24,000 nt of DNA from Orbus sturtevantii (lineage in GTDB: Bacteria > Pseudomonadota > Gammaproteobacteria > Enterobacterales > Orbaceae). The position numbers were made by a program, and so were the translations under genes. The notes under the pieces were generated by a model, which had not been told where the DNA came from, did no database searches, and worked only from the letters and a program-made list of their open reading frames with translations. The stretch's first letter is position 1. Every line of letters starts with the position of its first letter. This document shows positions 4,587-20,912 of the stretch, piece by piece. The stretch lies in assembly GCF_036251875.1 (NCBI RefSeq), contig NZ_CP133960.1; one strand, 5' to 3'.

Positions 4587-5042
4587 TCAATACCATTTTT
4601 TCAAGGCACTTTTATCAGATTTTTTTGCTTCAACCCAATTGTCCCCACTTAATGTCTGTTCTTTTTTCCAAAATGGTGCTTCATTTTTTAAAACATCCAT
4701 AATAAATTCAGCTGCCGCGAATGAATCCTTGCGATGTGCGCTACTAACACCAACATAGACAATATTTTCATTAGCAACTATTTTGCCAATTCTGTGAATA
4801 ACAACAATACGATTAAGCTGCCAGCGAGCTCTCGCTTTGTCAATAATTTTATATAAGACATTTTCAGTCATGCCTTGGTAATGTTCTAAATATAGCGAAG
4901 ATACCTCATTTGACAATGATCTGACTTTCCCCGTAAAAGTTACAATAGCGCCATCTTCAGGAGATTGAGATAGCCACTGATAATGCCGCTCAAACTTAAT
5001 TTCTGCGTCACTAACAATAACAATGCTTTTATTTATATCCAT
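4587..5042 (-). CDS. moaE: Molybdopterin synthase catalytic subunit MoaE
   Basis: 151 aa. GAIVTFTGKVR, YLEHYQGMTE and EAPFWKKE are typical of MoaE. It follows moaD with a 2-nt gap. Confidence 0.9.
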   Translation of the reverse strand: MDINKSIVIVSDAEIKFERHYQWLSQSPEDGAIVTFTGKVRSLSNEVSSLYLEHYQGMTENVLYKIIDKARARWQLNRIVVIHRIGKIVANENIVYVGVSSAHRKDSFAAAEFIMDVLKNEAPFWKKEQTLSGDNWVEAKKSDKSALKKWY

Positions 5043-5044
5043 TT

Positions 5045-5290
5045 CTAGCCACCTGTAACGGGAGGAAAAAAAGCAACTTCATCCTGATTCTCAACAATAT
5101 AATACTTATCAACCAATTGTTTATTAACAGCACAAAGCGGTGTTTTCTCTTTTAAAGCATAATGCCAATTTTCACCGTTTAAACTCAAGTGATTAATTAA
5201 GTCAGCAATAGACATCTTGTCTATATCTAATTCCAAAGATGAAACGCCTACTAGTTCCCTTGTCTGTGCAAAAAATAATATTCTAGTCAT
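5045..5290 (-). CDS. moaD: Molybdopterin synthase sulfur-carrier subunit MoaD
   Basis: 81 aa ending in [12 protein letters not shown], the ubiquitin-like C-terminal Gly-Gly. Its start overlaps the moaC stop by 8 nt. Confidence 0.9.
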
Positions 5291-5792
5291 GGCAAACTTT
5301 AAAATCTCCTGACTTACCGCCTCTTTTAGCTAATAATCGAACTTGTGAAATAACCATATCTTTTTGCACAGCTTTACACATATCATAAATAGTCAAAGCA
5401 GCTGTTGATGCGGCAAATAATGCTTCCATTTCGACACCTGTCTGCCCTTTTAGTTTACAAAGTGACTGAATCCTCACCTGAGAATGTTCTATATCTGGTT
5501 CGATCATGACCTCTACTTTTGTCAACAGTAATGGATGGCAAAGAGGAATAAGTTCCCATGTTCGCTTGGCTGCTTGGATACCGGCAATCCTCGCCGTTGC
5601 AAACACGTCACCTTTGTGGTGTTTACCCGCAATAATCATTGCTAACGTTTCGGCGTTCATTTGCACAAATGCTTCCGCTATAGCCTCTCGAGGTGTTTCA
5701 GCTTTTTCAGTTACGTCTACCATATGGGCTTGACCTTGCTCATTAACATGGCTAAAACTAAGGTCGTTTTTCTGTTGTTCTGACTGTGACAT
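5283..5792 (-). CDS. moaC: Cyclic pyranopterin monophosphate synthase MoaC
   Basis: [29 protein letters not shown] and [28 protein letters not shown] are nearly identical to E. coli MoaC motifs. Confidence 0.93.
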
Positions 5793-6581: not shown

Positions 6582-7808
6582 ATGAAAAAATATCTTGTTG
6601 GGGGCGCGGTTAGAGATAGCTTACTTAATAATCCAATCGCCGATTCAGATTGGGTTATTGTTGGCGCCAAACCACAAGAATTATTAGATCTGGGCTATGA
6701 ACAGGTAGGAAAGGATTTCCCCGTATTCTTGCATCCCGAAACAAAAGAAGAGTATGCCTTAGCTCGAACTGAGCGCAAATCAGGTAAAGGATATACTGGG
6801 TTTATTTGTGATTTTAGCCAAGAGATCACACTGGAGCAGGATTTACTCCGTAGAGACTTAACGATTAATGCTATCGCGATGGATGAAGATAAAAACTTAA
6901 TTGATCCATACGGTGGCATTAATGATCTAAACAATCGAATATTAAGGCACGTTTCGTTAGCTTTCAAAGAAGATCCTCTTAGAGTATTACGCGTTGCTCG
7001 CTTTGCCGCTCGTTACCACCACCAAGGTTTCACTATTGCACCAGAAACTCTTACGCTTATGAGGGAGATAGTTAAGGCTGGTGAAATGGCTCATTTAACT
7101 GCCGAAAGAGTCTGGAAAGAGACCGAAAAAGCACTAGCAACGCAAAACCCACAAGTATTTTTTGAAGTTTTAAAAGCTTGTGATGCTTTAGTTATACTGT
7201 TTCCGGAATTAAATAACTTATTTGGCGTACCACAGCCAGAAAAATGGCATCCAGAAATTGATACAGGCATTCATACTCTGCTCGCCTTACAACAGTCAGC
7301 CTTGCTCACTGATGATTTATTGGTACGCTTCTCGGTATTATGCCACGATTTTGGTAAAGGATTAACACCAAAAGAACAATGGCCGCATCATAAAAACCAT
7401 GGTGAAAAAGGCATTGCTTTAGTACAGCAATTATGCACAAGATTAAAAATACCTAACCAGTATCAAAAAATTGCCAGCTTAATGTGTCGTTATCACGATG
7501 AAGTTCATTGTGTTACGAAATTACCAACCGAGGCATTAGTTTTGTTACTTAACGGTATTGATGTGTGGCGCAATCCCGATAACCTTGAAAAATTGATATT
7601 AACGAGTTTGGCTGATTTGAGAGGCCGAAAAGGTTTCGAAAATGAGCCTTATCCGCAAGCACAATACTTAAAAAAAATTTATTCAATTGCTAAATCGGTG
7701 GCGATAAAAGATATCATTCAAGCTGGCTTTCAAGGCAAAGAAATTCATGATGAATTGCTCCGTAGACGGATTAATTCCATCGACGAATGGAAAATGACTA
7801 ATATTTGA
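6582..7808 (+). CDS. cca: Multifunctional CCA-adding tRNA nucleotidyltransferase with HD domain
   Basis: [35 protein letters not shown] and [17 protein letters not shown] (HD phosphohydrolase) are collinear with E. coli Cca (412 aa). Confidence 0.95.
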
Positions 7809-7924: not shown

Positions 7925-8001
7925 GGCTACGTAGCTCAGTTGGTTAGAGCACATCACTCATAATGATGGGGTCACAGGTTCGAATCCCGTCGTAGCCACC
8001 A
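7925..8001 (+). tRNA. metT: tRNA-Met (CAU), elongator
   Basis: The 77-nt sequence GGCTACGTAGCTCAGTTGGTTAGAGCACATCACTCATAATGATGGGGTCACAGGTTCGAATCCCGTCGTAGCCACCA matches E. coli elongator tRNA-Met as I remember it. The CCA end is encoded. Confidence 0.95.
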
Positions 8002-8023
8002 TTAAGATTAAAGAAGTATTAGT

Positions 8024-8108
8024 GCGGGTGTGGCGAAATTGGTAGACGCACCAGATTTAGGTTCTGGCGCCGCGAGGCGTGTGAGTTCAAGTCTCTCCAC
8101 CCGCACCA
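8024..8108 (+). tRNA. leuW: tRNA-Leu (UAG)
   Basis: 85-nt type II tRNA with acceptor GCGGGTG/CACCCGC, anticodon stem CCAGA/TCTGG and loop TTTAGGT (anticodon TAG). It has a long variable arm, a GTTCAAGTC T-loop and an encoded CCA. Confidence 0.92.
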
Positions 8109-8133
8109 TTTAATCTAAGCAATCTTATACCAT

Positions 8134-8207
8134 TGGGGTATAGCCAAGCGGTAAGGCAGCGGGTTTTGATCCCGCCATCCTAGGTTCGAATCCTGGTACC
8201 CCAGCCA
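8134..8207 (+). tRNA. glnU: tRNA-Gln (UUG)
   Basis: 74 nt with acceptor TGGGGTA/TACCCCA, anticodon stem GCGGG/CCCGC and loop TTTTGAT (anticodon TTG). GGTTCGAATCC T-arm and encoded CCA. Confidence 0.92.
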
Positions 8208-8318
8208 TCTTACTAATCACTATTTAGTCAGAGCGCCAATGAAAATTACAATCATTGTATCAACAAGTCTGATTAAAAAATTATGACCCAGCTCGAGCAA
8301 AATCACTTACCTTTATTT

Positions 8319-8393
8319 TGGGGTATAGCCAAGCGGTAAGGCAGCGGATTCTGATTCCGCCATTCCAAGGTTCGAATCCTTGTACCCCAGCCA
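8319..8393 (+). tRNA. glnV: tRNA-Gln (CUG)
   Basis: 75 nt with the same acceptor and D-arm as the previous tRNA. Anticodon stem GCGGA/TCCGC and loop TTCTGAT (anticodon CTG). Encoded CCA. Confidence 0.92.
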
Positions 8394-8502: not shown

Positions 8503-9738
8503 CTAAAATAACTGAGATAAAAAGGAAACACCATTTTGAGGTGGCTCGACATTAAAGTACTCAGCAACCGTTGCTCCCACATCAGACAGTGTCGCCCTCG
8601 TTCCCAAATGTTTACCCTCCACTCCTTTTTTGTATGCTAATAATGGTACTTTTTCACGAGTATGGTTACTGTGACCAATTGTTGGGTCATTGCCATGGTC
8701 TGCCATAATGATTAAAATGTCATCTGACCTTAATTGGGCGATCAACGTACCAATGCGTTTATCGGCTAATTGCAGTAGTTCACTATACCACTGCACATCT
8801 TGTGAATGTCCTGCGAGATCGGTTTCTTGTATGTTTAAAATGATAAGCCCGGTATCCATTTTAGTTGACTCAAGATTTAATTGGTCAAATAAATAATCAC
8901 TATCGACACCGTATATTATTTTTTTGCTGTCAGTTTGAATAATATCTGCCGCTTTACCGATTAAACAAACATCGATACTACTTTTATCTAAAATAGTGGG
9001 AATTTGTACGTTTTTATCAATACCATATCCCAAATGAATGACTTTATAGCCTTTCTTATAAACACCCGATAGTGGCGCATCGATACCTGCAATTGCGTTA
9101 TTTTTTACTTTTCTCGCATTAAGCAAATCTTGCAATGTAATATTTTCACCACCAAAAGTAATAACGCGAGAAACTTGAACTGAGCCACGAACAATGCTAG
9201 CTAATTTTTTTAAATCCTCAAATGAAATAAGATCTAAACAAGCGGTCACATTATACACTTGACCATAGTCTGTTTCTAAATTATCACCAACTGTCACGCA
9301 CTCATTAATCACTAATATTTTAGGGTCTAATTGTTTCCCAACTCTTCTAACGCCGTACCCTGCATTTTTTAGATTTTTTTCAATAATGTCGATCTTATTT
9401 CGAAATGGCTCAATCAACGGAGGCTTAGGCAATGTACCAATAATTTCTTGGTGACCTAAAAATGAATCTGCACCTACATGCGCAAGATTAGCGGTACCCC
9501 AATTTGCTGTCAGCGAAAATTTATGGTGCTTATACTCACAACCGATAGCATTCATTAATCCTAAATTTTCTAAATTGGGGAGCTCTATTGAGGGATTTCG
9601 TTTAATGATATTTAAGGCGGTATTTGAATGAATATCACGAGGTCTTACTTCTGATACATCATCCATGCACCCAATACCGAAACCATCTAATATTATAACA
9701 ATGCATTTGCCTTTTTTTTCTGGAGTCATCTGAATCAT
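8503..9738 (-). CDS. yhfW: Phosphopentomutase-like metalloenzyme (alkaline-phosphatase superfamily), YhfW-like
   Basis: 411 aa (E. coli YhfW is about 408). DeoB-type motifs are present: N-terminal IILDGFGIG, GADSFLGHQE (nucleophile region), DLAGHSQD and ADHGNDPTIGHSNHTREKVPLL. It is the last gene of the yhf-type operon. Confidence 0.85.
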   Translation of the reverse strand: MIQMTPEKKGKCIVIILDGFGIGCMDDVSEVRPRDIHSNTALNIIKRNPSIELPNLENLGLMNAIGCEYKHHKFSLTANWGTANLAHVGADSFLGHQEIIGTLPKPPLIEPFRNKIDIIEKNLKNAGYGVRRVGKQLDPKILVINECVTVGDNLETDYGQVYNVTACLDLISFEDLKKLASIVRGSVQVSRVITFGGENITLQDLLNARKVKNNAIAGIDAPLSGVYKKGYKVIHLGYGIDKNVQIPTILDKSSIDVCLIGKAADIIQTDSKKIIYGVDSDYLFDQLNLESTKMDTGLIILNIQETDLAGHSQDVQWYSELLQLADKRIGTLIAQLRSDDILIIMADHGNDPTIGHSNHTREKVPLLAYKKGVEGKHLGTRATLSDVGATVAEYFNVEPPQNGVSFLSQLF

Positions 9739-9740
9739 AT

Positions 9741-10892
9741 TTACCCCTTTTGCTGACCTAAGCTATCAAAAATACCCTCTAATTTAACTTCGCCATTTTG
9801 TATTCCTGAAACCACCGCAACATCGCTGCGCGTGACAAATATTTGAGTTCTAAAACTCGCTACAACGCTGTTACCGATCGGGTGAGATTTAGATAGCGCC
9901 AAGTAATAATCAATATTCTCATTATCAAATGGCTCAATTTGATCGTCATCTATCCATCTATCGCCTTGATAAATTGATACATTTTTAAAATGACCTCTTG
10001 AATAATAACCACCACCAAAAATAAAACTCTTATGGTCAAAGTTATGAGAGATCTCAGTTAAGTAAACTAAAGCGGGTTTTTCGACTAAACTCTTTTTCGC
10101 ATGTAGCGGTGTTGTGCCAGTGAGAGCATGGCCTGGTTCGCCTTGAGTGCCGCCAAGGAACTTAATCATTGGAATGGTATTACAACTGGTAGCAGAAGGC
10201 ATATTGACCTCTAGGTTATAAAATCCAATATCATTAAGAATTAATTTTGCTAATGATAAGGTATTTATATTTTCAGTAGGCTCTAGTTTGCTCTCGCCAT
10301 TATATAAAAAACATGGGAATGCCGTTATACCCGCAATAATAACGTGCAGTGATTGATGATAAGCTTTTAGCTTAGCCAGCTCATCTAAGGTAAATCCCCC
10401 TTTTTGACCAACATAAATGATATCTTTGTACTCAATCACTTTTATTAATACTTTTTGTTGCTTATTATATTTCTGGCAAACTGCATCAATTTTTTGTAAT
10501 TGTTCAATTGAATAAACAGTAATAAATTTCACGCCATACACAATAAACTCTTCCAATAATGAAAGTGGTACTTGAACTAAATGGCCAATATTGCCGATCG
10601 ATAAGTTATGTGATTTCAATAACAGCGCTTCTTTGTAATCAACCGCTACCGCATCAGCAATACCTGATTGTGATATTTTCTTAGCGATTAAGGGGTTTCG
10701 ACCAAATTGCTTGGTCATATAAAACAGTTCTATTCGATTATTTTGCGCCTCTTGCACCAAATTTTGGGTGTTTTCAATAATGGTATCTAAATCCAATAAA
10801 TAAGTATCGGGCAGAATTAAATTCTTTTTCCTTAAATAAAGTGATGCGTCAATTAATGCGGGGTTTCTACTCTTCACTGTCTCAAGAAACAT
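9741..10892 (-). CDS. yhfX: Fold-type III (alanine-racemase N-terminal-like) PLP enzyme, YhfX-like
   Basis: 383 aa (E. coli YhfX is about 387). It has a TIM-barrel-like N-terminal half with a candidate PLP lysine in YMTKQFGRNP and a beta-rich C-terminal half. There is a 2-nt gap to yhfW. Confidence 0.75.
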   Translation of the reverse strand: MFLETVKSRNPALIDASLYLRKKNLILPDTYLLDLDTIIENTQNLVQEAQNNRIELFYMTKQFGRNPLIAKKISQSGIADAVAVDYKEALLLKSHNLSIGNIGHLVQVPLSLLEEFIVYGVKFITVYSIEQLQKIDAVCQKYNKQQKVLIKVIEYKDIIYVGQKGGFTLDELAKLKAYHQSLHVIIAGITAFPCFLYNGESKLEPTENINTLSLAKLILNDIGFYNLEVNMPSATSCNTIPMIKFLGGTQGEPGHALTGTTPLHAKKSLVEKPALVYLTEISHNFDHKSFIFGGGYYSRGHFKNVSIYQGDRWIDDDQIEPFDNENIDYYLALSKSHPIGNSVVASFRTQIFVTRSDVAVVSGIQNGEVKLEGIFDSLGQQKG

Positions 10893-10898
10893 AAATAA

Positions 10899-11252
10899 TC
10901 ACCTTGCATTTAAAAAATTAACGAGATGAAGATAAATATAATCAGTCTCTGCTTCATATAATTTGAACGATAAAAGTTTTTTTAATTTTCGCCACAGCAT
11001 TTGTGAAGCGAGGAAATGTTCACTAGCAATGATTTCCTCCCTCATATCGTCCTCTAAAAAATTTATATATTCTTTTTTATTATTACGCATGCAAGCCATT
11101 GCTAAATGGGTTATAAAAAAGTCAGCTTTATCTTCGCTATCAATGATATTTTTTGTGATCAAATAATCTAAAATAGCTAAAAGCGAATCGACTGTTGACT
11201 GCTCTAACATATTACTTTGCTTTAGTATGACTAATTTTTCTCTAATCATCAT
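10899..11252 (-). CDS. yhfY: Stand-alone PRD-domain protein, YhfY-like
   Basis: An all-helical protein of about 118 aa with two PRD-type histidine motifs, ITHLAMACMR and YIYLHLVNFL, 60 residues apart. The track ORF starts at TTG 11261. I prefer ATG 11252 or 11249, which follow GGGGGT. Confidence 0.75.
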   Translation of the reverse strand: MMIREKLVILKQSNMLEQSTVDSLLAILDYLITKNIIDSEDKADFFITHLAMACMRNNKKEYINFLEDDMREEIIASEHFLASQMLWRKLKKLLSFKLYEAETDYIYLHLVNFLNAR

Positions 11253-11261
11253 TACCCCCAA

Positions 11262-12185
11262 TTAATACCTTGGTATCATGTCACCATTAACTACTGAGTT
11301 TTGTATTTTTAAAATAGTTTCTTGTTCTAAAATATTACTGATAATAGTTTTTACCACCTGATCATCTCGGTGACAAACGATAACTGAAGCAGTCATATCT
11401 AAAATATCTTCAAAAAAATCAACGGGTAAATAATTTAAATTCTTGAAATCTTTATTGCTAATCTCATCATAATTCCACACCCCAGCATCTATCAAACCAC
11501 TATTAAGCGCATGAATAATTTGGTGTCCAGAGGTTTCAATTAAGGTAATGTCTTTGCTTTTAACAAGCTTTTTTGTAAGAAGCTCCTGATCTAACGAACT
11601 ATAGTCAATCCCTATCTTCATGCCATCTTCTATTGACGATTTATTTTTATCAGAAAATAAAATAACATGACGACTTAAATAACTCTGATCCCCAAAATCA
11701 GCAATAATTTCTATCGGTTCACCCACGCTTAGGGCATGATTTGCTGAATAACGAGAAATAACAGCAAATCGATATGTTTTTTTAACAATGGAATTAACCC
11801 TTTCTTTAGCGCCTCTCAAATAGGCTAAATTTAGCTTAATATTATGTTGTTCAAAAGCGAGGTAAAGACCTGTTGCAAAGCCCTCATACAGTTTGGAATA
11901 CGGCAATGTCATGGTGCCTAAAATAACATCGATAAGTGCATATTTTTGTAAAATAGAATAATCAATAAATTTAATAAATGTGCCTAAATGACCGCGATTA
12001 GAGCAAATGATGGCCTTTTGCTCTTTTAGGTAATTTAATGCATTTTGAACGGTTCCCCTAGCAGCATTATATTTATCCTGGCAGGCACTAATACTCAACA
12101 TTTTGTCATCGGTTTTTAATTGCAATAGATCTAAAGCGAGATAATGAACCATTATTGCTTTCTTTTTATAAAAATGATTATCCAT
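11262..12185 (-). CDS. yhfZ: GntR-type winged-HTH regulator fused to a substrate-binding-protein-like domain, YhfZ-like
   Basis: 307 aa (E. coli YhfZ is about 301). The N-terminus LSISACQDKYNAARGTVQNALNYLKEQKAIICSNRGHLGTFI is a GntR-like wHTH. The remaining ~230 aa are an alpha/beta PBP-like domain. Its stop abuts the yhfY start. Confidence 0.75.
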   Translation of the reverse strand: MDNHFYKKKAIMVHYLALDLLQLKTDDKMLSISACQDKYNAARGTVQNALNYLKEQKAIICSNRGHLGTFIKFIDYSILQKYALIDVILGTMTLPYSKLYEGFATGLYLAFEQHNIKLNLAYLRGAKERVNSIVKKTYRFAVISRYSANHALSVGEPIEIIADFGDQSYLSRHVILFSDKNKSSIEDGMKIGIDYSSLDQELLTKKLVKSKDITLIETSGHQIIHALNSGLIDAGVWNYDEISNKDFKNLNYLPVDFFEDILDMTASVIVCHRDDQVVKTIISNILEQETILKIQNSVVNGDMIPRY

Positions 12186-12196
12186 ATATCACTACT

Positions 12197-13297
12197 CTAT
12201 TCTCTCTTAGCTTCAACTATTGCCTGTTTCAATATTCGAATAATCGTATCAGCGCCTGCTCGATTGGGATTTATTCTTATCATATAATTTTCTGCATTAG
12301 GATCGGATTCTCTAAATGTTCCAGAGACACGATAAAATAAAGGACAGAATTCATATTTTGACTCTGCTCCAACTGGGTTAGTAATTGCCCCATGAATTTC
12401 TGCGACAGCGATAACTGATTTTGCAATTTTTTCAGCTAACCTTACGATAATTACTTTAGATTGAGCATTCACAACCATGGCATCAAGAATATCGGGACAC
12501 TCATGTGAGTTTAACCGTGAACAGACTTCATCACTGACTTGGGATGAAATCGCTAGCGATACTGGTGCATAAATCATCCCTTTAATAACATCTATCGCCT
12601 CGTGCCCCTGAACTTGGCCACCGCCAGAATAATTGTCATGCTTCAATTTTGTAATCTCTTTTTTACGCCCTACAATGCATCCAATTCCTTCTGGCCCTAG
12701 TAGCTTGAAAGATGAAAAACAAGATAGTGTAGCCCCGGCTTGTACCCCTATTTTTTTTGTTTTAAGCGCTGAATAATTATCATCAGTAATGATAAAAATA
12801 TTTTTATCTATTTCCCGAATAGCCGAGATAAGCTCCTCTAAATCATAAGCATCATTAATTTTTTGCCGGGTGACTTGAATCAAAATCCCGTCAAATTTGT
12901 TTTGCTTAACTTTCATCGCCACAGCATTTAAATCATTAAAATCGACTTTTTCGGTACGGATACCGAGCATATTAATTGAGACTTGAGTTGTTGGATAAAT
13001 AGGTGCATCATGTACCAACATCGTTCCACCGTGCCCTACTGTTGCATATAGTGCTAACCTTATAGCATTTGTTCCAGAGCCTCTAATTAATAACGCATCT
13101 TCACTAGCAAAAAACTTAGCTAACACTTTTTCTACTTTCATTGTTGTTTTTGGCTGATTCAAGCCAGGGACTAGCCCTAAATCTCCTCGCGTTAAAATTT
13201 CATGCCCATGAAACGCCTGAGTTATCGCATCAACTAAATCGAACTGTAAGGCAATTGCTTCATCAATCGTCAAACTCTTTAACGGATAAACATTCAT
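12197..13297 (-). CDS. yhfS: Fold-type I PLP-dependent enzyme (aminotransferase/SelA-like), YhfS-like
   Basis: 366 aa (E. coli YhfS is about 361). MNVYPLKSLTIDEA, GDLGLVPGLNQP, HDAPIYPTT, TDDNYS, a candidate Schiff-base lysine in CFSSFKLLGPEGIG, and RINPNRAG at the C-terminus. Confidence 0.8.
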   Translation of the reverse strand: MNVYPLKSLTIDEAIALQFDLVDAITQAFHGHEILTRGDLGLVPGLNQPKTTMKVEKVLAKFFASEDALLIRGSGTNAIRLALYATVGHGGTMLVHDAPIYPTTQVSINMLGIRTEKVDFNDLNAVAMKVKQNKFDGILIQVTRQKINDAYDLEELISAIREIDKNIFIITDDNYSALKTKKIGVQAGATLSCFSSFKLLGPEGIGCIVGRKKEITKLKHDNYSGGGQVQGHEAIDVIKGMIYAPVSLAISSQVSDEVCSRLNSHECPDILDAMVVNAQSKVIIVRLAEKIAKSVIAVAEIHGAITNPVGAESKYEFCPLFYRVSGTFRESDPNAENYMIRINPNRAGADTIIRILKQAIVEAKRE

Positions 13298-13300
13298 TAT

Positions 13301-14182
13301 TTAATTCCTATTCATGAACTTTTGGGGATTTATTGCTAACATTTTATTAATAAAGGAGTCAGAAATACCATGTTCTAACATCATCGGTACAAATACATCG
13401 AGTAAATAAGCGTAACCGATTCCACCAAAATGAGTTAAACTTGACCGTCTCGTGACATCCATTGATAAAAACACCTGATCAACATAACCTCTTTTTTCAA
13501 TCTCTTTTAGCATATTAATTCTTGTTAAATCAGGTAGATAGTTTTGTTTGCCAACAGTATCAAACTCAATGTAGACGCCTTGCTCTAGTACATTTAATAT
13601 CTGATCTATGTCAGGGTTTAAGTCGAGATGGCCAATAACGACTTTCGATAAATCGACACTATTCTTTTTAAAAAAATGAACTTGTTCGATAGCAAACGTA
13701 CCTAATGTAGTGTGGGTCGTAATAGGTTTATTGGTCGCTTTATGAGCTAATACTGCCGCAGCAAAAATTTTCTTTTCATTTAATGTCCAACCATTTTTAC
13801 TTGATCCTATCTCGCCAATTATGTGTGCCTTAATATCTGTGCTCTCAATGCCGACTTCAATTTCATTGATCATAAAATTAGCGATTTGTTTTATAGATTG
13901 GTTAGCAATAAACCCAGAAATAAATTTTTCAGTATAAAATCCAGTAGACTGAATAATGTTAATATTCGTTAAATCGGCTATTTGCTTCACATAAATTGGA
14001 TTTCGACGCATGCCAGCATTCGTTACATCAACGATATTTCTCACGCCTTTTTCGTACAAAATTTTATATTCATTTACCGTCTGCCAAAAACAGTTCAGGT
14101 TTGTATCCTCACTATTTTTTACTGAAGATAAATCTATCGTAGTATGTTCATGCATGTAGGTAATGCCATCGTTCAGTATCAT
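13301..14182 (-). CDS. php: Phosphotriesterase-homology protein (amidohydrolase superfamily)
   Basis: 293 aa (E. coli Php is 292). Equivalents of all binuclear-metal ligands are present: YMHEHTTIDL (HxH), IIGEIGSS (Glu in place of a carbamyl-Lys), ITTHTT, VIGHLDL and LSMDVTRRS. Confidence 0.9.
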   Translation of the reverse strand: MILNDGITYMHEHTTIDLSSVKNSEDTNLNCFWQTVNEYKILYEKGVRNIVDVTNAGMRRNPIYVKQIADLTNINIIQSTGFYTEKFISGFIANQSIKQIANFMINEIEVGIESTDIKAHIIGEIGSSKNGWTLNEKKIFAAAVLAHKATNKPITTHTTLGTFAIEQVHFFKKNSVDLSKVVIGHLDLNPDIDQILNVLEQGVYIEFDTVGKQNYLPDLTRINMLKEIEKRGYVDQVFLSMDVTRRSSLTHFGGIGYAYLLDVFVPMMLEHGISDSFINKMLAINPQKFMNRN

Positions 14183-14196
14183 AATATATCCTTGGC

Positions 14197-15495
14197 CTAT
14201 ACTGACATTAGATTTAACATCACGAGTATGTTTGCAATTACCCCAACAAGTAATGCACCAACTGGACCAATGGCTAAATCGACTAATTTTTTCTTAAATT
14301 TTCCATTCAGTACATACAAGCCAATTACGACTAATCCTCCCCACGCTGGCGCTATTGCGGTTGCAGCGATTACGCCACCAACGAGTAAGGCGATCTCTAA
14401 TACTTTAGTGATTGCCGTTCTTATGTTATCACCGGCATCTCTCATACCTGGGAATTTATCAATGAATAGCGCAAATTTAGTTAAAAGCAATACTTCAACT
14501 GCCATCCAAATACCACCAGCAAAAAATGCTAGCAGTGGATTATTAATTGCACCGCCAATAGAGCCAATAACAAAAACCATTTTAATTCCCGCTGGCGAGT
14601 AAGTGCCTGTTGCTATACCCGTTGTAACAACTAAAGGGATAAAACCAAGCACACGCGCTAACTCGGTTATCGCTGCGGAATCAAAATGGCCTTCTTGATA
14701 TAAGGGAGCGGAAAGCGCTGACTCGGTCACCAAACACATTGATGCCGCTAGTGCTAAAAAAGCCCCAGAGAGCACAAACAGATACCAATACTTTTTGATC
14801 TGCGCCACTCTATCAGCAAAAATATTGGCTAGCTGCTGTTGGGAGTTAGACTTTTCTCGCTTATCTGAAAACGCATAAAATAGCATAAAAAACATACCAA
14901 CCAAGAGAGCCATAGCGTTTGCATTAATCGTAATAGAATTACCGCCTTCAAATTGAAAATGACCAAATCGCACCGTAATCACTTGCGCTAAAACAGTAAA
15001 AATAAAAACGACTAAGCCTTTTTGCCAACCATATTGAAGCGTGACCACAAAAGAAGGGAAAACTGCAAACGCGACTAGCACAACAGAAGAAACCTGGCCT
15101 AGGCTTTGCAAAAAATTATAAGGTAGAAGCTGAAATATCTCTTGGATAAAACCGAGTCCACCACCGATAAGCAGACCATATAAAGCGCCAACAAATCCTG
15201 CTAGGATAATAGTTTGCTTGCCTTTATCTGACAAATAACAACCGATAATATCCGTACCAAGTAAAACGACATGTATGATAATAACGCTTGATGCGATAGA
15301 TTGAGGAATAAAGCCAATGATATAACCGATACCAAAGGCAAAGGCGGTGGTTCCGAGCACGGATTTACTAATTTTTTTTTCTTTGTACTCTAGAACCATT
15401 GGTCGTAAGGCATCATTAAATACCGCAATACCTCGATTTGACATAATCGTTGCGATAGAACAAACACATGCCATGATAATCATATTTAAAATCAT
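14197..15495 (-). CDS. yhfT: Polytopic inner-membrane protein (putative transporter), YhfT-like
   Basis: 432 aa (E. coli YhfT is about 434) with 10 or more hydrophobic segments. AVFNDALRP lies near the N-terminus and GFIPLVVTTGIATGTY and DNIRTAITKVLEIALLVG in the C-terminal half. There is a 7-nt gap to yhfU. Confidence 0.8.
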   Translation of the reverse strand: MILNMIIMACVCSIATIMSNRGIAVFNDALRPMVLEYKEKKISKSVLGTTAFAFGIGYIIGFIPQSIASSVIIIHVVLLGTDIIGCYLSDKGKQTIILAGFVGALYGLLIGGGLGFIQEIFQLLPYNFLQSLGQVSSVVLVAFAVFPSFVVTLQYGWQKGLVVFIFTVLAQVITVRFGHFQFEGGNSITINANAMALLVGMFFMLFYAFSDKREKSNSQQQLANIFADRVAQIKKYWYLFVLSGAFLALAASMCLVTESALSAPLYQEGHFDSAAITELARVLGFIPLVVTTGIATGTYSPAGIKMVFVIGSIGGAINNPLLAFFAGGIWMAVEVLLLTKFALFIDKFPGMRDAGDNIRTAITKVLEIALLVGGVIAATAIAPAWGGLVVIGLYVLNGKFKKKLVDLAIGPVGALLVGVIANILVMLNLMSV

Positions 15496-15502
15496 GTTTA
15501 CC

Positions 15503-15865
15503 TCATTTTTTATTTAATTCATTCATGACTGTTGAAATGATGAAATCCATATCTTGTGAAGTAAACCCAAAAGCAATTTTTCCTGAATTGATGTGATCTA
15601 TAATTTGAGATTCGCTAAGCGTAGTCCCAGGCATACCTAAAGCAATTGCTTTTTCGGAACCAACCAGAGCAATAACCATGGCTAAGGCACCGCCTCCACC
15701 CGTATTACATGCACCAAAATAGTAATCGACCTGCCCTGATTTTAAATCTAAAGCGGCATCAAGATCGGTTTTGATGGTAATTTGATTCTCTTGTGTTTGG
15801 TATTTTTTAATTAATCTTTCAATTTCTTGTTTTTCAATTTGACCGCCGATAACGATTTTTTTCAT
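15503..15865 (-). CDS. yhfU: DUF2620-type small soluble protein, YhfU-like, with an RpiB/LacAB-like Cys-x-Thr-Gly loop
   Basis: 120 aa (E. coli YhfU is about 117). MKKIVIGG... and VDYYFGACNTGGGGALAMVIAL. AAGGGA Shine-Dalgarno 9 nt upstream. It is the first gene of the operon. Confidence 0.75.
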   Translation of the reverse strand: MKKIVIGGQIEKQEIERLIKKYQTQENQITIKTDLDAALDLKSGQVDYYFGACNTGGGGALAMVIALVGSEKAIALGMPGTTLSESQIIDHINSGKIAFGFTSQDMDFIISTVMNELNKK

Positions 15866-15921
15866 ATTTATTTTCCCTTATCTTCAAAGTACAATAATTT
15901 GTATATTGAAGTTATCATATA

Positions 15922-15949
15922 AGAGATAAAATGATGATAAATTATCTCT
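15922..15949. promoter_or_regulatory. 8-bp inverted repeat AGAGATAA-N12-TTATCTCT upstream of yhfU (candidate operator or leader hairpin)
   Basis: The arms are at 15922-15929 and 15942-15949, 57-86 bp upstream of the yhfU start and within a 430-bp non-coding leader. Confidence 0.3.
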
Positions 15950-16218
15950 GGTTTTGCCAAGTAGATCTCAATTTATTTTATATAACCCTGTTGTGGTGCT
16001 TGAAGCGTTGCTTAATCTACAATACCAAGCCTAATTTTGCGTATGATAAAGATAATAAGAAGTTAGAGAACAATCGCATAAACTACCTTTAAAAAGGAAA
16101 AAAATGGTCTGAGTTTTGGTTAAGGACATGATTAAAATCATGGTCGTTTATTCGTGCATACTTTAACGCTTTGCACTATTTTTATATTTTTCTGTATATT
16201 TAGTTAGGTCATATAGTT

Positions 16219-16296: not shown

Positions 16297-17073
16297 TTAC
16301 TTATTAAAACCAATTAACTCAGAAATTTTAGCCGCGGTTTTATTAAGCTCATCTATTAGTTTTTGTTCATCTTCAGCGGTATTACATCTAAAAATCGAAG
16401 TAGATAAGCTAAGTGCAGCGATGATATTACCTAAACGATTATAAATAGGCACAGAAAAGCATCTTAAACCAAGTTCTGATTCTTCATCATCTTTACCATA
16501 ACCACATTGTTTAACCTTATCAAGCTCGGCTAAAAAAGCCTCTTTGCTCATAATAGTTTTGGGTGTAAATTGAATAAAATTCAGATGATCAATGATTTCA
16601 TTTTTACTCTCATCATCTAACCAAGCTAATAGTATTTTGCCAAGACCACTCGCGTAAACATTTGCTTGGTTGCCAATTTTTGATGTTAAACAAAGGCTAT
16701 ATTGCTCTGACGCAACTTTGTTTATATAAATGATCTGCTCACCTTCACGAACTGCTAAATGGATTGTTTCTTTGGTTTTGTCTCTTAATTTTCTCATTTC
16801 ACTATCAGCGATAGCTAAAAAATTTTGATGATCAAGTACTCGATTACCTAAATCAAGCAATTTCAAGTTGAGTGAATATTTATCAGAATCATTTTCTTGA
16901 TTAACATAACCTAGAGATTTCATGGTTTGTAGAAAACGGTAAGCGGTGCTTTTCGGCATCATTACTTTGTTTGATAATTCCGATATAGCAATCTCTTTTG
17001 ATTCTGCTAATACTTCTAAAATTCCAAAAACTTTTAAAACTGAAGCAACGGATTCCGGTGAACTATCATTCAT
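16297..17073 (-). CDS. kdgR: IclR-family pectin-catabolism repressor KdgR
   Basis: SVASVLKVFGILEVLAESKEIAISELSNKVMMPKSTAYRFLQTMKSLGYV and EESELGLRCFSVPIYNRLGNIIAALS are collinear with E. coli and Dickeya KdgR. The neighbouring genes are pectin-catabolism genes. Confidence 0.88.
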   Translation of the reverse strand: MNDSSPESVASVLKVFGILEVLAESKEIAISELSNKVMMPKSTAYRFLQTMKSLGYVNQENDSDKYSLNLKLLDLGNRVLDHQNFLAIADSEMRKLRDKTKETIHLAVREGEQIIYINKVASEQYSLCLTSKIGNQANVYASGLGKILLAWLDDESKNEIIDHLNFIQFTPKTIMSKEAFLAELDKVKQCGYGKDDEESELGLRCFSVPIYNRLGNIIAALSLSTSIFRCNTAEDEQKLIDELNKTAAKISELIGFNK

Positions 17074-17164
17074 GACAAAGACTTTCCTCTCACTAAAATA
17101 AAAGCTAGTAACGTTCTAAATATTAATTAACCAAGCTTATATCTGAACGGCATAAAATGTGCAA

Positions 17165-17173
17165 ATTATACCA
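17165..17173 (-). promoter_or_regulatory. Extended -10 element (TGgTATAAT on the minus strand) upstream of kdgR
   Basis: The reverse complement of 17165-17173 reads TGGTATAAT, about 90 nt upstream of the kdgR ATG in the kdgF-kdgR spacer. Confidence 0.4.
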
Positions 17174-17186
17174 TAAGTAATAATTA

Positions 17187-17516
17187 CTAGCTATTTTTTA
17201 AGAAATCGAGTCGCTGTGGCGTAAATGTATCCAATAAGATCCCCGCCTCTTTACAAACGCAACCATGCATAATATTCGGCTGTTTATACAACGTATCTCC
17301 CGCACTCACGAGATGAGTTTCTCCTCCGATGGTAAACTCAAATATCCCCGATAAAACATAAGTTAATTGTTCATGAGGATGACTATGCATTGCACCGATT
17401 GCATCTTTAGCAAAATGGACTTCTACCGCCATCATCTGACCATTATGGGCAAGAATTTTGCGTTTAACGCCATTACCTAAATCGTCTAATTTCACATCTG
17501 AATTAAAAATGAACAT
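17187..17516 (-). CDS. kdgF: Small cupin KdgF (unsaturated-uronate linearising enzyme family)
   Basis: 109-aa single cupin with metal motif AMHSHPHEQLTYVLSG and a second motif GDTLYKQPNIMHG. Size and context (between kduD-like and kdgR, next to ogl) fit KdgF. Confidence 0.7.
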   Translation of the reverse strand: MFIFNSDVKLDDLGNGVKRKILAHNGQMMAVEVHFAKDAIGAMHSHPHEQLTYVLSGIFEFTIGGETHLVSAGDTLYKQPNIMHGCVCKEAGILLDTFTPQRLDFLKNS

Positions 17517-17607
17517 AATGAAATTTCCTATATGTAAAAAAAGATAAGAAAAAATAAAGCACTTAATCTCTTATCTATTAAATAAACGATACGTTTAATA
17601 TGACAAA

Positions 17608-18408
17608 TTAAGGTTGTTTACCTATATAAGCAAGAATACCTCCGTCAACATAAAGTATATGCCCGTTAACAAAATTAGAGGCTTCTGATGCTAGAAAGAC
17701 TGCCGCACCGGCTAAATCATCAGTAGTGCCCCAACGACCAGCAGGTGTTTTTGCGATAATAAACTGGTCGAATGGATGGCGAGAACCATCTGCTTGCTTT
17801 TCACGTAATGGGGCTGTTTGTGGCGTTGCAATATAACCCGGACCAATTCCATTACATTGGATATTAGCATGGCCAAATTCAGAGCAGATATTTTTAGTTA
17901 ACATTTTTAATCCCCCTTTTGCCGAAGCATAACCTACAACAGTTTCACGACCAAGTTCGCTCATCATTGAGCAGATATTAATAATTTTTCCGCTCCCTTT
18001 TTTGATCATTGAAGGTAATACGGCTTTTGCCATAATAAATTGACCTGTTAAATCGATATCAATGATTTTTCTATAATCTTCGGCTGTCGTTTCTAACATG
18101 GGTTTACGTTGAATAATTCCAGCATTATTGACAAGAATATCAATAACACCATGTTCTTTTTCTATCTGTTTAATTGTTTTTTCTACTGCTACATCATCGG
18201 TGATATCAAATAAGTAACCATGGGCATTAATTCCAGCCGCTTTATAAGCATCCAAACCTTTTTGTAAATTTTCAGCTACGACATCATTAAAAACTATTTT
18301 TGCCCCAGCAGAATGAAGTGATTTTGCGATTTCGAACCCAATTCCATAAGATGCGCCTGTTACTAGTGCAATTTTGTTATTAAGTGAAAATTTATTTAAA
18401 ATTGACAT
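17608..18408 (-). CDS. SDR-family 2-dehydro-3-deoxy-D-gluconate 5-dehydrogenase, IdnO/DhuD-like rather than classical KduD
   Basis: TGASYGIG Rossmann motif, NNAG, and catalytic S...YASAKGGLKMLTK. The residues around INICSMMSELGRETVVGYASAKGG and TPAGRWG resemble gluconate-5-dehydrogenase-type SDRs more than E. coli KduD. Confidence 0.75.
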   Translation of the reverse strand: MSILNKFSLNNKIALVTGASYGIGFEIAKSLHSAGAKIVFNDVVAENLQKGLDAYKAAGINAHGYLFDITDDVAVEKTIKQIEKEHGVIDILVNNAGIIQRKPMLETTAEDYRKIIDIDLTGQFIMAKAVLPSMIKKGSGKIINICSMMSELGRETVVGYASAKGGLKMLTKNICSEFGHANIQCNGIGPGYIATPQTAPLREKQADGSRHPFDQFIIAKTPAGRWGTTDDLAGAAVFLASEASNFVNGHILYVDGGILAYIGKQP

Positions 18409-18472
18409 ATTAGTATTCTCCGTTAAATTTTTAATAGATAAAATCTATCTATTATTTATAGAAATAATTTTC

Positions 18473-19645
18473 TTACATTTCATTTAAAATAGCTGTAGGT
18501 ACTTTTGTTAAGTAGAGAGCAGGCACATCCTTTGCATCACAAGAATATAGTACATATTCATTATTAGGCGAAAATGAAGGATGAGGATGAGTTACTTGAC
18601 GATCGCCATCTAATACTCGCCAAGAGCTATTATGTTTAACCAGTTTATGTACTCTTTTATTTTTTGGCGTCAAAATATATAACCAAGGATCATTTTCAAT
18701 TTTATACCCCCCCGTATCCTTTACATCAACAGGGCTACCAGAACCATCACCAATATAAAGAGAACCATCAAAATTACTCATTAAATGAGAACAAGCAGGC
18801 ATTTCCATAATAAGAGAATCTTGTTTAGTATCTGGATTATAAATTCGAATATACCTTTCTTGTTGTCCTTTCATATAAGAAACATAAGCAAGCCCAGAAC
18901 CGTTTGGTAACCAAAATTCATGGGTACAACTTTCACCTGGCTGATGTTCATGCGCTTTTCTTTCATTTGTTCCATCGCTATTAACTAGCCACATTCGCGC
19001 ATCGACTAAATCGTGGGGACCTTCATGACAAAAAGCAATTGTCTCGTCATGAAATGGTCTAAAAATTGGATGACCTAGCCACACATTTTGGTCAATAACT
19101 GTTTTCGCTTTTCCGCTATGAATATTTATATTAATCAATCTGCAACGCGGATTTTTATCATAAAATGATTTAAACAATTCCCAATCAGTTAAAGGCGTCC
19201 AATCTTTTTTGGCAATCTCGATTCCCACAATTTGTGTACAATCAGAGTTCGCAACCCATGTGCCATAACCAACCCAATCATCAGGAACCGAATAGATGTT
19301 TTTCTCTTCTAACGTTTCAAGTTCGACTCGCTGTAAATTTCGTTCATTTTTTACATAGTATAAAAATTTATCATCTGGCGAGAGAAAGCCACCAAAGGTA
19401 TTATCTCCAGTCCCTTCAGTAAGTTGCGTCGCTGTTTGATCTTTTAGATCGAGTAAATAATAGTTACGTTTTTTATCGAACTCGCCAGCAAAAAGGATTT
19501 TCTGCCCGTCATTAGTAAAACACTTTTGGTAAAAATAGTTACGGTGGCAAAGTACTCCTTCAGGAGTTAATCGAATAATTTCATTTTTAGAATCTTCATC
19601 AATAAACGATGAAAATGTTAATCTTACGATATTTCCCTTAGCCAT
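18473..19645 (-). CDS. ogl: Oligogalacturonate lyase (PL22)
   Basis: 390 aa. CHRNYFYQKCFTNDGQKILFAGEFD, TEGTGDNTFGGFLSP, VPDDWVGYGTWVANSDCT, CHEGPHDLVDARMW and DRQVTHPHPSFSP are nearly collinear with Dickeya Ogl (388 aa). Confidence 0.93.
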   Translation of the reverse strand: MAKGNIVRLTFSSFIDEDSKNEIIRLTPEGVLCHRNYFYQKCFTNDGQKILFAGEFDKKRNYYLLDLKDQTATQLTEGTGDNTFGGFLSPDDKFLYYVKNERNLQRVELETLEEKNIYSVPDDWVGYGTWVANSDCTQIVGIEIAKKDWTPLTDWELFKSFYDKNPRCRLININIHSGKAKTVIDQNVWLGHPIFRPFHDETIAFCHEGPHDLVDARMWLVNSDGTNERKAHEHQPGESCTHEFWLPNGSGLAYVSYMKGQQERYIRIYNPDTKQDSLIMEMPACSHLMSNFDGSLYIGDGSGSPVDVKDTGGYKIENDPWLYILTPKNKRVHKLVKHNSSWRVLDGDRQVTHPHPSFSPNNEYVLYSCDAKDVPALYLTKVPTAILNEM

Positions 19646-19729
19646 AAAGACTCCTAACAGTAAATAATAAATGAAATAAGTTACTTATATTTGATTAGTA
19701 GCATAATAATATAAAACCGATTATTGTTT

Positions 19730-19745
19730 TGTGATTAATATCACA
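19730..19745. promoter_or_regulatory. Consensus CRP-binding site TGTGA-N6-TCACA
   Basis: TGTGATTAATATCACA has both half-sites perfect. With -10 TATTAT (minus strand, 19703-19708) the site centre falls near -41.5 of an inferred ogl start around 19696, which is class II geometry. Confidence 0.65.
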
Positions 19746-19758
19746 TATCAATTAATTT

Positions 19759-19777
19759 ATCGAAACGTCGTTTTATT
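19759..19777. promoter_or_regulatory. Candidate KdgR operator
   Basis: ATCGAAACGTCGTTTTATT has a perfectly palindromic core AAACG-T-CGTTT. It matches about 17 of 19 positions of the gammaproteobacterial KdgR-box consensus as I remember it (AATRAAAYRNYGTTTYATT). It lies in the ogl/isomerase divergent region. Confidence 0.5.
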
Positions 19778-19790
19778 TTATTCAAATCAA

Positions 19791-19818
19791 TTGAAATAAT
19801 TTTTATCAAGTTTATAAT
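19791..19818 (+). promoter_or_regulatory. Sigma-70 promoter for the RpiB-like isomerase gene
   Basis: -35 TTGAAA (19791-19796), 16-bp spacer, -10 TATAAT (19813-19818), about 80 bp upstream of the ATG at 19897. Confidence 0.5.
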
Positions 19819-19896
19819 AAATATATTGAATTTATTTATAGTACTTATTATTAGCGTAGATTATTACTTATTTATAATAAATTTAGAGGATAAATT

Positions 19897-20532
19897 ATGA
19901 AAATTGCTTTAATGAACGAATTTAGCCAAGCAGCTAAAAATCCTATTATTTTGAATGAATTAAAAAATGCTACTGAAAAACATGGTCATACCGTTTTTAA
20001 TGTGGGCATGAATAGTGACAACGATAACAAATTAACTTATGTTCATTTAGGGATTATTGGCGCGATTCTTTTAAATAGTAAAGCTGTTGATTTTGTTATC
20101 GCTGGCTGCGGAACGGGACAAGGTGCACTAATGGCATTAAATGCGTTTCCTGGCGTTAACTGTGGTTACTGTTTAGATCCAACTGACGCATACCTTTTCG
20201 CTCAAGTGAATAATGGTAATGCTTTATCATTAGCATTTGCTAAAGGTTTTGGTTGGGGTGCAGAACTTAATGCGCGCTATATGTTTGAAAAAGCATTTGA
20301 AGGAGAAAAAGGCTTGGGGTACCCACCTGAGCGCCGCGAATCACAAAATGCCAATGGCATTATTTTAAATAACATGAAAAATGCAGCGGCAAAACCACTG
20401 ATTGAATCATTAAAATCCATTGATCAAACATTACTTAAAGATGCAATTAAAGGCGAACGTTTTCAAGCCTGTTTCCTTAAAAACAGTAAAGATGCTGAAC
20501 TAACTAATTATATAAAAAGCTTATTGAATTAA
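19897..20532 (+). CDS. RpiB/LacAB-family isomerase, DhuI-type candidate 4-deoxy-L-threo-5-hexosulose-uronate ketol-isomerase
   Basis: 211 aa. VDFVIAGCGTGQGALMALNAFPGVNCGYC...NNGNALSLAF aligns with the RpiB core [27 protein letters not shown]...DTNVLAFG. It is about 60 aa longer than RpiB, as in streptococcal DhuI. It is divergent from ogl behind the CRP and KdgR sites. Confidence 0.65.
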   Translation: MKIALMNEFSQAAKNPIILNELKNATEKHGHTVFNVGMNSDNDNKLTYVHLGIIGAILLNSKAVDFVIAGCGTGQGALMALNAFPGVNCGYCLDPTDAYLFAQVNNGNALSLAFAKGFGWGAELNARYMFEKAFEGEKGLGYPPERRESQNANGIILNNMKNAAAKPLIESLKSIDQTLLKDAIKGERFQACFLKNSKDAELTNYIKSLLN

Positions 20533-20554
20533 GTTATTCTTATAATCTCTTTTG

Positions 20555-20588
20555 AAGATCGCTTGTTTTAAGTGATCTTTAAATTTTT
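20555..20588 (+). terminator. Rho-independent terminator of the isomerase gene
   Basis: AAGATCGCTT-GTTTT-AAGTGATCTT, a 10-bp stem with one G:U pair, followed by TAAATTTTT. It begins 23 nt after the stop codon. Confidence 0.55.
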
Positions 20589-20728
20589 AACATGTTTACT
20601 AAAATCGAGTTTACATTGCTATTTTTATACATAAGTAAACCTATTTGTTAACTTTCACGCTGTTAACTAGCCTTTTCAATCAAAATACCAATCTACATAT
20701 ATTCAACTAACTAAACTCATCCGCCACT

Positions 20729-20811: not shown

Positions 20812-20862
20812 TGAAATTAATGATGCTAAAAATTATTAAATATCACTAAAATAACCTAGTCA

Positions 20863-20896: not shown

Positions 20897-20912
20897 ACGT
20901 GCTAAATATGCT

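Follow-up and report, generated by a model that had tools for sequence, protein, structure and literature searches.

The eight-gene cluster

We investigated a 24,000-nt stretch of Orbus sturtevantii DNA (contig NZ_CP133960.1; hereafter, the window) whose minus strand carries eight genes homologous to the yhf/php genes of Escherichia coli K-12. Running from 15865 down to 8503, the eight open reading frames (ORFs) encode proteins of 120, 432, 293, 366, 307, 120, 383, and 411 aa and are separated, in order, by 7, 14, 3, 11, 0, 6, and 2 nt. The genes, with the AlphaFold2 (AF2) model confidence where one was computed, are as follows (PLP, pyridoxal phosphate).

yhfU, 15503..15865 (−): DUF2620 protein with a predicted RpiB/LacAB-like fold (Pfam DUF2620, E 1.8e-39; AF2 pLDDT 96)
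yhfT, 14197..15495 (−): polytopic membrane protein, putative permease (Pfam YhfT, E 8e-129; AF2 pLDDT 82)
php, 13301..14182 (−): PTE-family binuclear-metal amidohydrolase (Pfam PTE, E 3e-78; 43% identical to E. coli Php)
yhfS, 12197..13297 (−): fold-type I PLP enzyme, Lys198 (Pfam YhfS-like_C, E 2e-39; PDB 4J8L, E 7e-108)
yhfZ, 11262..12185 (−): HTH_41 domain plus periplasmic-binding-protein-like ligand domain (YhfZ_C), probable repressor (Pfam; PDB 2OZZ)
yhfY, 10899..11261 (−): stand-alone PRD protein (Pfam PRD PF00874, E 1e-7)
yhfX, 9741..10892 (−): alanine-racemase-fold (fold-type III) PLP enzyme, Lys61 (Pfam Ala_racemase_N and YhfX-like_C; PDB 4KBX, E 1e-93)
yhfW, 8503..9738 (−): alkaline-phosphatase superfamily phosphomutase/phosphotransferase whose core is DeoB-like and whose cap domain differs (Pfam Metalloenzyme; NCBIfam PRK12383)

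All eight yhf/php families were present in the window in a single copy each (Pfam, NCBIfam, and BLASTP), and every protein matched its E. coli K-12 counterpart one to one and over its full length in BLASTP, with 22–49% identity. The cluster is contiguous and co-directional with operon-like spacing, its gene order is U-T-php-S-Z-Y-X-W, and no strong terminator was found inside it. The locus is a complete and intact eight-gene yhf/php operon, known in E. coli yet uncharacterized. Because the gaps are only 0–14 nt, a single promoter upstream of yhfU probably serves all eight genes, and the single operator-like element upstream is consistent with one transcription unit. An earlier sequence-only reading of this DNA had claimed eight tightly packed minus-strand ORFs, each representing one yhf/php family and retaining intact catalytic motifs; the ORF listing, the Pfam and NCBIfam assignments, and the BLAST comparison with E. 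coli b3376–b3383 bore this out, and every residue that it had named was conserved in the homologue alignments.

The same reading had held that the gene set has no assigned function, and we found none given in any paper, PDB title, or E. coli annotation. Full-text literature searches (gene names, DUF2620, descriptive terms, and PTER) returned no functional assignment for yhf/php genes, and the matches consisted only of lists, a predicted sigma-54 site, and a bacterial interspersed mosaic element (BIME) attenuator in E. coli. The PDB entries 4J8L (YhfS), 4KBX (YhfX), and 2OZZ (YhfZ) are titled uncharacterized or hypothetical, and the 2026 RefSeq annotation of E. coli K-12 still words the products as 'putative'.

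The E. coli cluster yhfZYXW-php-yhfUTS (b3383–b3376) contains the same eight families at full length, densely arranged on one strand; it shares their catalytic residues and likewise has no assigned function. It differs from the window cluster in its order (Z-Y-X-W-php-U-T-S), in sequence (the identities given above), in lacking the TACA-N6-TGTA operator described below, and in its neighbors, which are frl and trpS in E. coli but a tRNA array and pectin genes in the window. In E. coli K-12 (L001, 3,499,910–3,512,344), the cluster adjoins the fructoselysine operon frlABCDR and is convergent with frlR, an adjacency that was absent from the other 80 loci.

Gene arrangements across genomes

We collected 80 loci from reference genomes with a YhfT profile and mapped the eight families in each by tblastn. 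We found the set conserved, with five arrangements (P, php), among Bacillota, Fusobacteriota, Petrotoga, Pasteurellaceae, and Enterobacterales. Lactobacillales have U-T-P-S-Z-Y-X-W, the same as in the window; Clostridia and Petrotoga have Z-Y-U-T-(amidase)-P-S-X-W; Erysipelothrix has Y-U-T-amidase-P-S-X-W-Z; Pasteurellaceae have Y-X-W-U-T-P-S, in which Z was not detected; and E. coli, Providencia, and Chania have Z-Y-X-W-P-U-T-S. The recurrent modules were [U-T], [php-S], [X-W], and [Z-Y]. Selection appears to keep the eight genes together, because the set persists across 80 genomes in these five arrangements. This part of the sequence-only reading stood, whereas its view of the gene order as a novel permutation did not, the order being the standard one of Lactobacillales.

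The closest parallels were found in Enterococcus crotali, E. phoeniculicola, and E. avium, and in Vagococcus, Carnobacterium, and Granulicatella, whose clusters share with the window an identical order and the operator position upstream of yhfU. They differ in that most of them adjoin a divergent amidase gene, which the window lacks, and in that the window host is a gammaproteobacterium.

In E. coli, the cluster was near-core (5,062 of 5,426 complete genomes, ~93%). A plasmid search recovered it only on megaplasmids or chromids and on mis-filed chromosomes, none of them mobilizable. Two loci of Bacillota/Negativicutes metagenome-assembled genomes (L034 and L035) encode two YhfT paralogues in the order T-P-S-X-W-T-U, without YhfZ and without the palindrome described below.

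Origin of the cluster

All eight window proteins were closest to Lactobacillales copies, at 44–76% identity, against 25–53% to other Gammaproteobacteria and the still lower values for E. coli. In neighbor-joining trees of U+T and of P+S+X+W, the window nested inside Lactobacillales both times, while Pasteurellaceae and Enterobacterales formed a separate clade. Its order is that of Enterococcus, Vagococcus, and Carnobacterium. This Lactobacillales-type order, together with the nesting of all eight proteins, makes horizontal transfer likely, and the cluster of O. sturtevantii, a fly-gut bacterium, was probably acquired from Enterococcus-like bacteria.

Vertical inheritance within Gammaproteobacteria, with the order merely rearranged from that of E. 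coli as the sequence-only reading had implied, would fit the presence of the set in E. coli, Providencia, Chania, and Pasteurellaceae, as well as a cluster whose GC content equals that of its flanks in a window with neither integrase nor attachment (att) repeat. We disfavor it as highly improbable, since the proteins and both trees place the window with Lactobacillales and apart from every other gammaproteobacterial copy, since order and operator alike follow the Lactobacillales/Clostridia type, the operator being absent from Enterobacterales and Pasteurellaceae copies, and since close relatives of the window cluster lie at different chromosomal sites.

Two such relatives were found. In L084 (370–6178), YhfT is 86% identical to that of the window, and a fragment of an rve_3 integrase core lies just upstream of yhfU. 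In L083 (5029–11445), YhfT is 81% identical and the cluster directly follows rpoC; because the RpoC of this locus is 83% identical to that of E. coli, its host is a gammaproteobacterium. Both are placed unlike the window, and the module therefore occupies different sites in related hosts. In the window, four tRNA genes lie in the ~700 nt downstream of yhfW and are convergent with the operon.

7925–8393 (+): tRNA genes Met-CAT, Leu-TAG, Gln-TTG, and Gln-CTG, between cca and yhfW

Arrays of tRNA genes are common landing sites of acquired DNA.

The cluster also appears to be mosaic. Its U-T module is a deeply divergent variant common to E. crotali, E. phoeniculicola, and 'E. huntleyi': window YhfT is 75% identical to the E. 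crotali-type variant versus ~45% to other Lactobacillales. For the enzyme and regulator genes, the Vagococcus/E. avium group is slightly nearer. Similarly, between L002–L004 and L015, L018, L023, L032, and L048, T is ~46% identical, whereas the enzyme genes of the same loci are 59–72% identical. The existence of two divergent U-T variants in Lactobacillales suggests that modules have been exchanged or that the membrane module differs in specificity.

Predicted operator and promoter

The region upstream of yhfU contains the following elements.

15890..15904 (−): operator-like palindrome ATACA-AATTAT-TGTA within ATATACAAATTATTGTAC, 38 nt upstream of the yhfU ATG
15960–15931 (−): promoter-like hexamers TTGGCA-18-CATCAT, predicted by a consensus scan
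15919–15914 (−): TATGAT hexamer shared with the relative L084, predicted by reading the sequence

The upstream regions of yhfU in the collected loci gave a palindrome consensus, ATATACA-N6(A/T-rich)-TGTAyATT, which had exactly one match in the 24 kb of the window. We looked for the core TACA-N6-TGTA in the 200 nt preceding the first gene of the operon, in 66 loci with YhfZ and 9 without it. The core was present in 58 of the 66 YhfZ-encoding loci and in none of the 9 others, with a background frequency of 0.045 per kb; L083 has neither yhfZ nor the palindrome. Its placement followed the arrangement of the operon: before U in the Lactobacillales order, before both Z and Y in the Clostridial order, and before Y in Erysipelothrix. 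YhfZ of the window scored 369 bits against the NCBIfam model YhfZ_full (cutoff 260), and in the window the palindrome sits downstream of the promoter-like hexamers (promoter region 15911..15960, −). The palindrome is thus the predicted operator of YhfZ, which probably represses at or just after the transcription start.

An inverted repeat, AGAGATAA-N12-TTATCTCT (15922–15949, −), overlaps the promoter-like −10 region; it is specific to the window and was not seen in related loci. An Rfam scan of the window returned only the four tRNAs and no riboswitch or ribonucleic antiterminator (RAT)-like element.

Enzymes and the PRD protein

The metal ligands of Php (H11, H13, E124, H157, H185, and D242) are all conserved and correspond to H12, H14, E125, H158, H186, and D243 of the E. 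coli protein. Its nearest solved structures are 1BF6 and 4LEF. Php scored 256 bits against E. coli Php and ~110 bits each against 3PNZ (a phospho-sugar lactonase), lactonase-type phosphotriesterase-like lactonases (PLLs), and PTER (9EFA), and it fell below the cutoff of the phospho-furanose lactonase equivalog NF045706 (83.7 bits; cutoff 630). Phospho-furanose lactonases (Lmo2620) and mammalian PTER share with Php the TIM-barrel binuclear metal center with the same six ligands; the difference is that Php is so much closer to its E. coli namesake than to either. PTER hydrolyzes the amides N-acetyltaurine and N-acetyl-beta-alanine (PMC11374699, PMC13311154, PMC12873775), and its helical insertion is eukaryote-specific and described as commonly absent from bacterial PTEs (PMC12873775). 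Because Php is equidistant from lactonases and the amide hydrolase PTER, it could cleave a lactone, an ester, or an N-acyl amide bond. A 152-aa ORF (14144–14602, +) lies antisense to the php/yhfT junction and is most likely spurious.

In YhfS, K198 (within F-S-S-F-K) and D172 are both conserved, and weak aminotransferase Pfam matches accompany YhfS-like_C. K61 of YhfX is conserved. In YhfW, the metal ligands and nucleophile (D18, D91, S92, D307, H311, D347, H348, and H359) align with those of E. coli DeoB; at position 92, which aligns with the phospho-threonine of DeoB, 42 homologues have Thr and 34 have Ser. YhfW passed PRK12383 (564 bits; cutoff 254), a model to which NCBI gives the same product name as DeoB, but it scored below the DeoB equivalog cutoffs (NF003766, 173.9 vs 256; TIGR01696, 135.9 vs 341.2), and its match to PDB phosphopentomutase was restricted to residues 250–410. 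YhfW thus shares with the phosphopentomutase DeoB (EC 5.4.2.7) an alkaline-phosphatase-type core, the metal ligands, and a Ser/Thr nucleophile, whereas its cap domain and N-terminal half have diverged; since it falls below the DeoB cutoffs and its cap has diverged, a substrate other than that of DeoB is expected.

The likely true start of YhfY is the ATG at 11249 rather than the TTG at 11261, as judged from homologue N-termini. In its PRD, H52, R59, and E105 are invariant (65 of 65 homologues for H52 and R59), and H112 occurs in 56 of 65; the conserved histidines suggest phosphorylation dependent on the phosphotransferase system (PTS). With 116–120 aa, YhfY consists of the PRD only, and no fused RNA-binding (CAT) or DNA-binding output domain was found.

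The membrane module

The identification of YhfU as a DUF2620 protein by the sequence-only reading agrees with Pfam and can now be refined to a predicted RpiB-like isomerase fold. The best Foldseek PDB matches of its AF2 model were RpiB/LacAB (TM-score 0.59–0.71; probability 0.97–1.0), and those at the top of the list, all of this family, scored 0.67–0.71. The loop G-A-C53-N-T55-G-G-G-G-A-L-A-M was invariant in 34 homologues, and in profile alignments, which are individually weak, C53 and T55 align with the catalytic C66 and T68 of E. coli RpiB and with the window's own RpiB-like protein. E. coli YhfU gave a sub-threshold match to PF02502 (E 0.065) over the same Cys loop, and window YhfU gave none. 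YhfU is thus predicted to have an RpiB-like isomerase fold with a catalytic-type Cys-x-Thr loop after strand 3. It resembles RpiB/LacAB in this loop and in predicted fold (TM-score ~0.7) and differs from them in lying below the PF02502 threshold and in being always paired with the membrane protein YhfT.

YhfT has a weak internal repeat, E...GFIP, and its AF2 model matched no solved fold in the PDB, transporters and EIIC included (TM-score below 0.25).

These two proteins could instead form a non-canonical PTS, in which an EIIC-like YhfT and a YhfU acting as a phosphocysteine EIIB would deliver the substrate already phosphorylated, Php would open a phospho-sugar lactone, and YhfY would sense the phosphorylation of EIIB or HPr. 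An invariant Cys followed by a glycine-rich loop in a protein always encoded beside YhfT would suit such a system, as would a PRD protein with conserved histidines, the relatedness of Php to the phospho-furanose lactonase model and 3PNZ, and the lack of a kinase in a cluster whose enzymes look phosphate-dependent. We nevertheless consider it unlikely: no PTS Pfam family was found in YhfT or YhfU even at E = 10, YhfT resembled no solved EIIC, no EIIA is encoded in the cluster, and the Cys of YhfU lies at position 53, after strand 3 as in RpiB, and not near the N-terminus. EIIB as an identity for YhfU was rejected, as its top 50 structural matches comprised RpiB/LacAB and generic flavodoxin-like folds and no EIIB.

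Substrate clues from accessory genes

Outside the window, several genes recur with the cluster. A divergent, short amidase-signature protein was encoded inside or beside it in ~50 of the 80 loci, and a beta-lactamase-fold hydrolase closest to PBP4B stood beside it in 11. Directly downstream of yhfW, eight taxonomically diverse loci carried nagB (glucosamine-6-phosphate deaminase), which scored 297 against an equivalog cutoff of 236.9. These genes hint at an amide-linked amino-sugar or sugar-phosphate/amino-acid substrate. No amidase remnant turned up in a search that covered the window, E. coli, and the closest Enterococcus loci.

Because the pathway combines amide/ester hydrolases, sugar-phosphate-type enzymes, two PLP enzymes of the alpha-amino-acid type, and occasionally nagB, we consider the most likely substrate class to be conjugates in which an amide or ester bond joins an amino acid to an amino sugar or sugar phosphate; examples would be glyco-amino acids, glycation products, and muropeptide-like fragments. 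The class proposed earlier, a phosphorylated or esterified amino compound, fits this evidence.

In six Lactobacillales loci (L038, L048, L069, L075, L077, and L081), a RihA/RihC-like ribonucleoside hydrolase and ATPases of ATP-binding cassette (ABC) transporters recur 1–2 kb upstream. This linkage may be functional, through ribose-containing substrates, or may reflect shared ancestry only.

The PRD-regulated PTS sugar operons and the Amadori operons (frl, fra, and gfr) offer a further parallel, since they likewise combine a ligand-responsive repressor with a PTS-linked PRD signal, and the substrate class, sugar/amino-acid conjugates, may be related; E. coli yhf/php lies beside frlABCDR. The eight window proteins nevertheless include no EIIA, EIIB, EIIC, PfkB kinase, or SIS-domain deglycase, and the PRD protein is a stand-alone one without an RNA- or DNA-binding domain.

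The amide hydrolases would also suit a pathway that involves no sugar and whose substrate is a small amino acid in N-acyl or amide linkage; D-amino-acid amides, N-acetylated amino or sulfonic acids, and omega-amino-acid lactams would be examples. In this case, Php would be a PTER-like amide hydrolase, YhfX a racemase, YhfS an aminotransferase or lyase, and YhfW a phosphatase only or a moonlighting protein. PTER (112 bits) is as close to Php as the lactonases are and hydrolyzes N-acetylated substrates of this kind (PMC11374699, PMC13311154), Php, the amidase-signature protein, and the beta-lactamase-fold protein represent three amide-hydrolase families associated with the cluster, two PLP enzymes are typical of alpha-amino-acid chemistry, and the ligand domain of YhfZ weakly resembles NMT1/THI5-type binding proteins (Pfam). 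Against this stand the strictly conserved YhfW (DeoB core) and YhfU (RpiB fold), whose nearest characterized relatives act on sugar phosphates, and the genuine nagB downstream of yhfW in the eight loci, which would be left unexplained. We therefore regard a sugar-free pathway as improbable.

Proposed working

On balance, with confidence somewhat above even, we read the locus as an intact, horizontally acquired, Lactobacillales-type yhf/php operon for the inducible catabolism of a conjugate; the gene set and its history come from the data, and the biochemical steps are what we infer. A single promoter upstream of yhfU would drive the eight genes, and YhfZ would repress them through the palindrome ATATACA-N6-TGTAC at or just downstream of the transcription start. 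From the phylogenetic footprint, a small, probably anionic pathway intermediate would release YhfZ, and YhfY, by way of its conserved histidines, may make expression or activity depend on the phosphorylation state of the PTS. YhfT would import the substrate with its invariable partner YhfU, and Php would hydrolyze an ester, lactone, or N-acyl amide bond in the cytoplasm. The sugar-phosphate moiety would then be rearranged by YhfW (phosphomutase-like) and YhfU (RpiB-like), and the alpha-amino-acid moiety would be processed with PLP by YhfX (racemase fold) and YhfS (fold-type I).

Several observations weigh against this reading. As to the history, the cluster shows no GC or other compositional anomaly relative to its flanks, no att-like repeat was found when the far side of the cluster was searched for a second copy of the 3′ end of tRNA-Gln, and the direction of transfer would follow from tree topology alone; given the missing anomaly and repeat, either the transfer is not recent or the GC content of the donor was similar. 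The co-occurrence of palindrome and YhfZ (Fisher p = 2e-7) ignores kinship among the loci, and Enterobacterales copies, whose YhfZ is very divergent, lack the palindrome, as do those of Pasteurellaceae. At the sequence level, the likeness of YhfU to RpiB is weak (hhalign probability 1–31%; Pfam E 0.065); YhfU has 120 aa versus 149 aa for RpiB, the alignment stops at RpiB residue 110, and the protein, ~30 residues shorter, is without the C-terminal His/Arg phosphate-binding segment. The importer role of YhfT is putative, being based only on polytopic character and the weak internal repeat. The amidase, nagB, and PBP4B-like genes are all absent from the window, and neither a kinase nor a canonical PTS component is encoded in the cluster to account for any phosphate group.

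A module that is not catabolic at all and instead serves the salvage, repair, or detoxification of a damaged or toxic phosphorylated amino metabolite, or a biosynthesis, would also be expected to lack, as this cluster does, any kinase, aldolase, or dehydrogenase for passing its products on to central metabolism. The near-core status of the cluster in E. coli and a literature without a growth substrate for it would agree with such a role; to our knowledge, none has emerged for yhf/php from decades of E. coli work. We find this very unlikely, as the architecture is that of an inducible catabolic operon, with a dedicated membrane protein, a repressor with a ligand domain, a predicted operator located at its promoter, and a PRD that would tie it to carbon status; moreover, the distribution is patchy and horizontally transferred among host-associated heterotrophs, and the linked genes (nagB, amidases, and nucleoside hydrolases) are all catabolic.

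Returning to conjugate catabolism, a more far-reaching version, which we put forward only tentatively and hold to be doubtful, is that YhfT and YhfU make up a new uptake module, composed of a membrane protein whose fold is new to solved structures and an obligate small RpiB-like Cys enzyme. The pathway that it would feed, hitherto undescribed, would act on amino-sugar or sugar-phosphate/amino-acid conjugates with an amide linkage, such as glyco-amino acids or glycation products. The whole would be controlled by a new repressor-operator pair, YhfZ and ATATACA-N6-TGTATAT, and modulated by a free-standing PRD protein.

Genomic surroundings

The flanks of the cluster include housekeeping genes of gammaproteobacterial type without anomaly (pgm–seqA, 198–2358, −; moaE/moaC, 4587–5792, −; cca, 6582–7808, +) and, upstream of the cluster, a pectin-related locus. 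Among these genes, seqA is a marker of a gammaproteobacterial host, and inside the cluster YhfT and YhfU each showed 100% identity to a protein of O. sturtevantii.

16297–23659: pectin/oligogalacturonide locus with an IclR (KdgR-like) regulator, a small cupin, a KduD-like short-chain dehydrogenase/reductase, and an oligogalacturonate lyase

The locus also encodes a Pel9A-like lyase, an F5/8 type C domain protein, and an isomerase with RpiB and DUF3666 domains, which is possibly a uronate isomerase of the DhuI/KduI type.

Implications

The yhf/php genes are long-standing 'y-genes' of E. coli and are widespread in gut- and animal-associated Firmicutes, Fusobacteria, and Pasteurellaceae. The window copy adds little alone and does not solve the orphan operon. 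The comparison across loci, however, gives handles on it: a probable operator, which could serve as a reporter for the inducer, a fold assignment for DUF2620, and a modular picture of the operon. Additionally, the genes that accompany the cluster elsewhere (amidase, nagB, and PBP4B-like) restrict the search to amino-sugar or amino-acid compounds with an amide linkage. What distinguishes the window locus is its probable horizontal origin of the Lactobacillales type, its mosaic modules, and the co-transferred predicted operator. A complete regulated metabolic module, operator included, thus appears to have moved between Lactobacillales and an insect-gut gammaproteobacterium.

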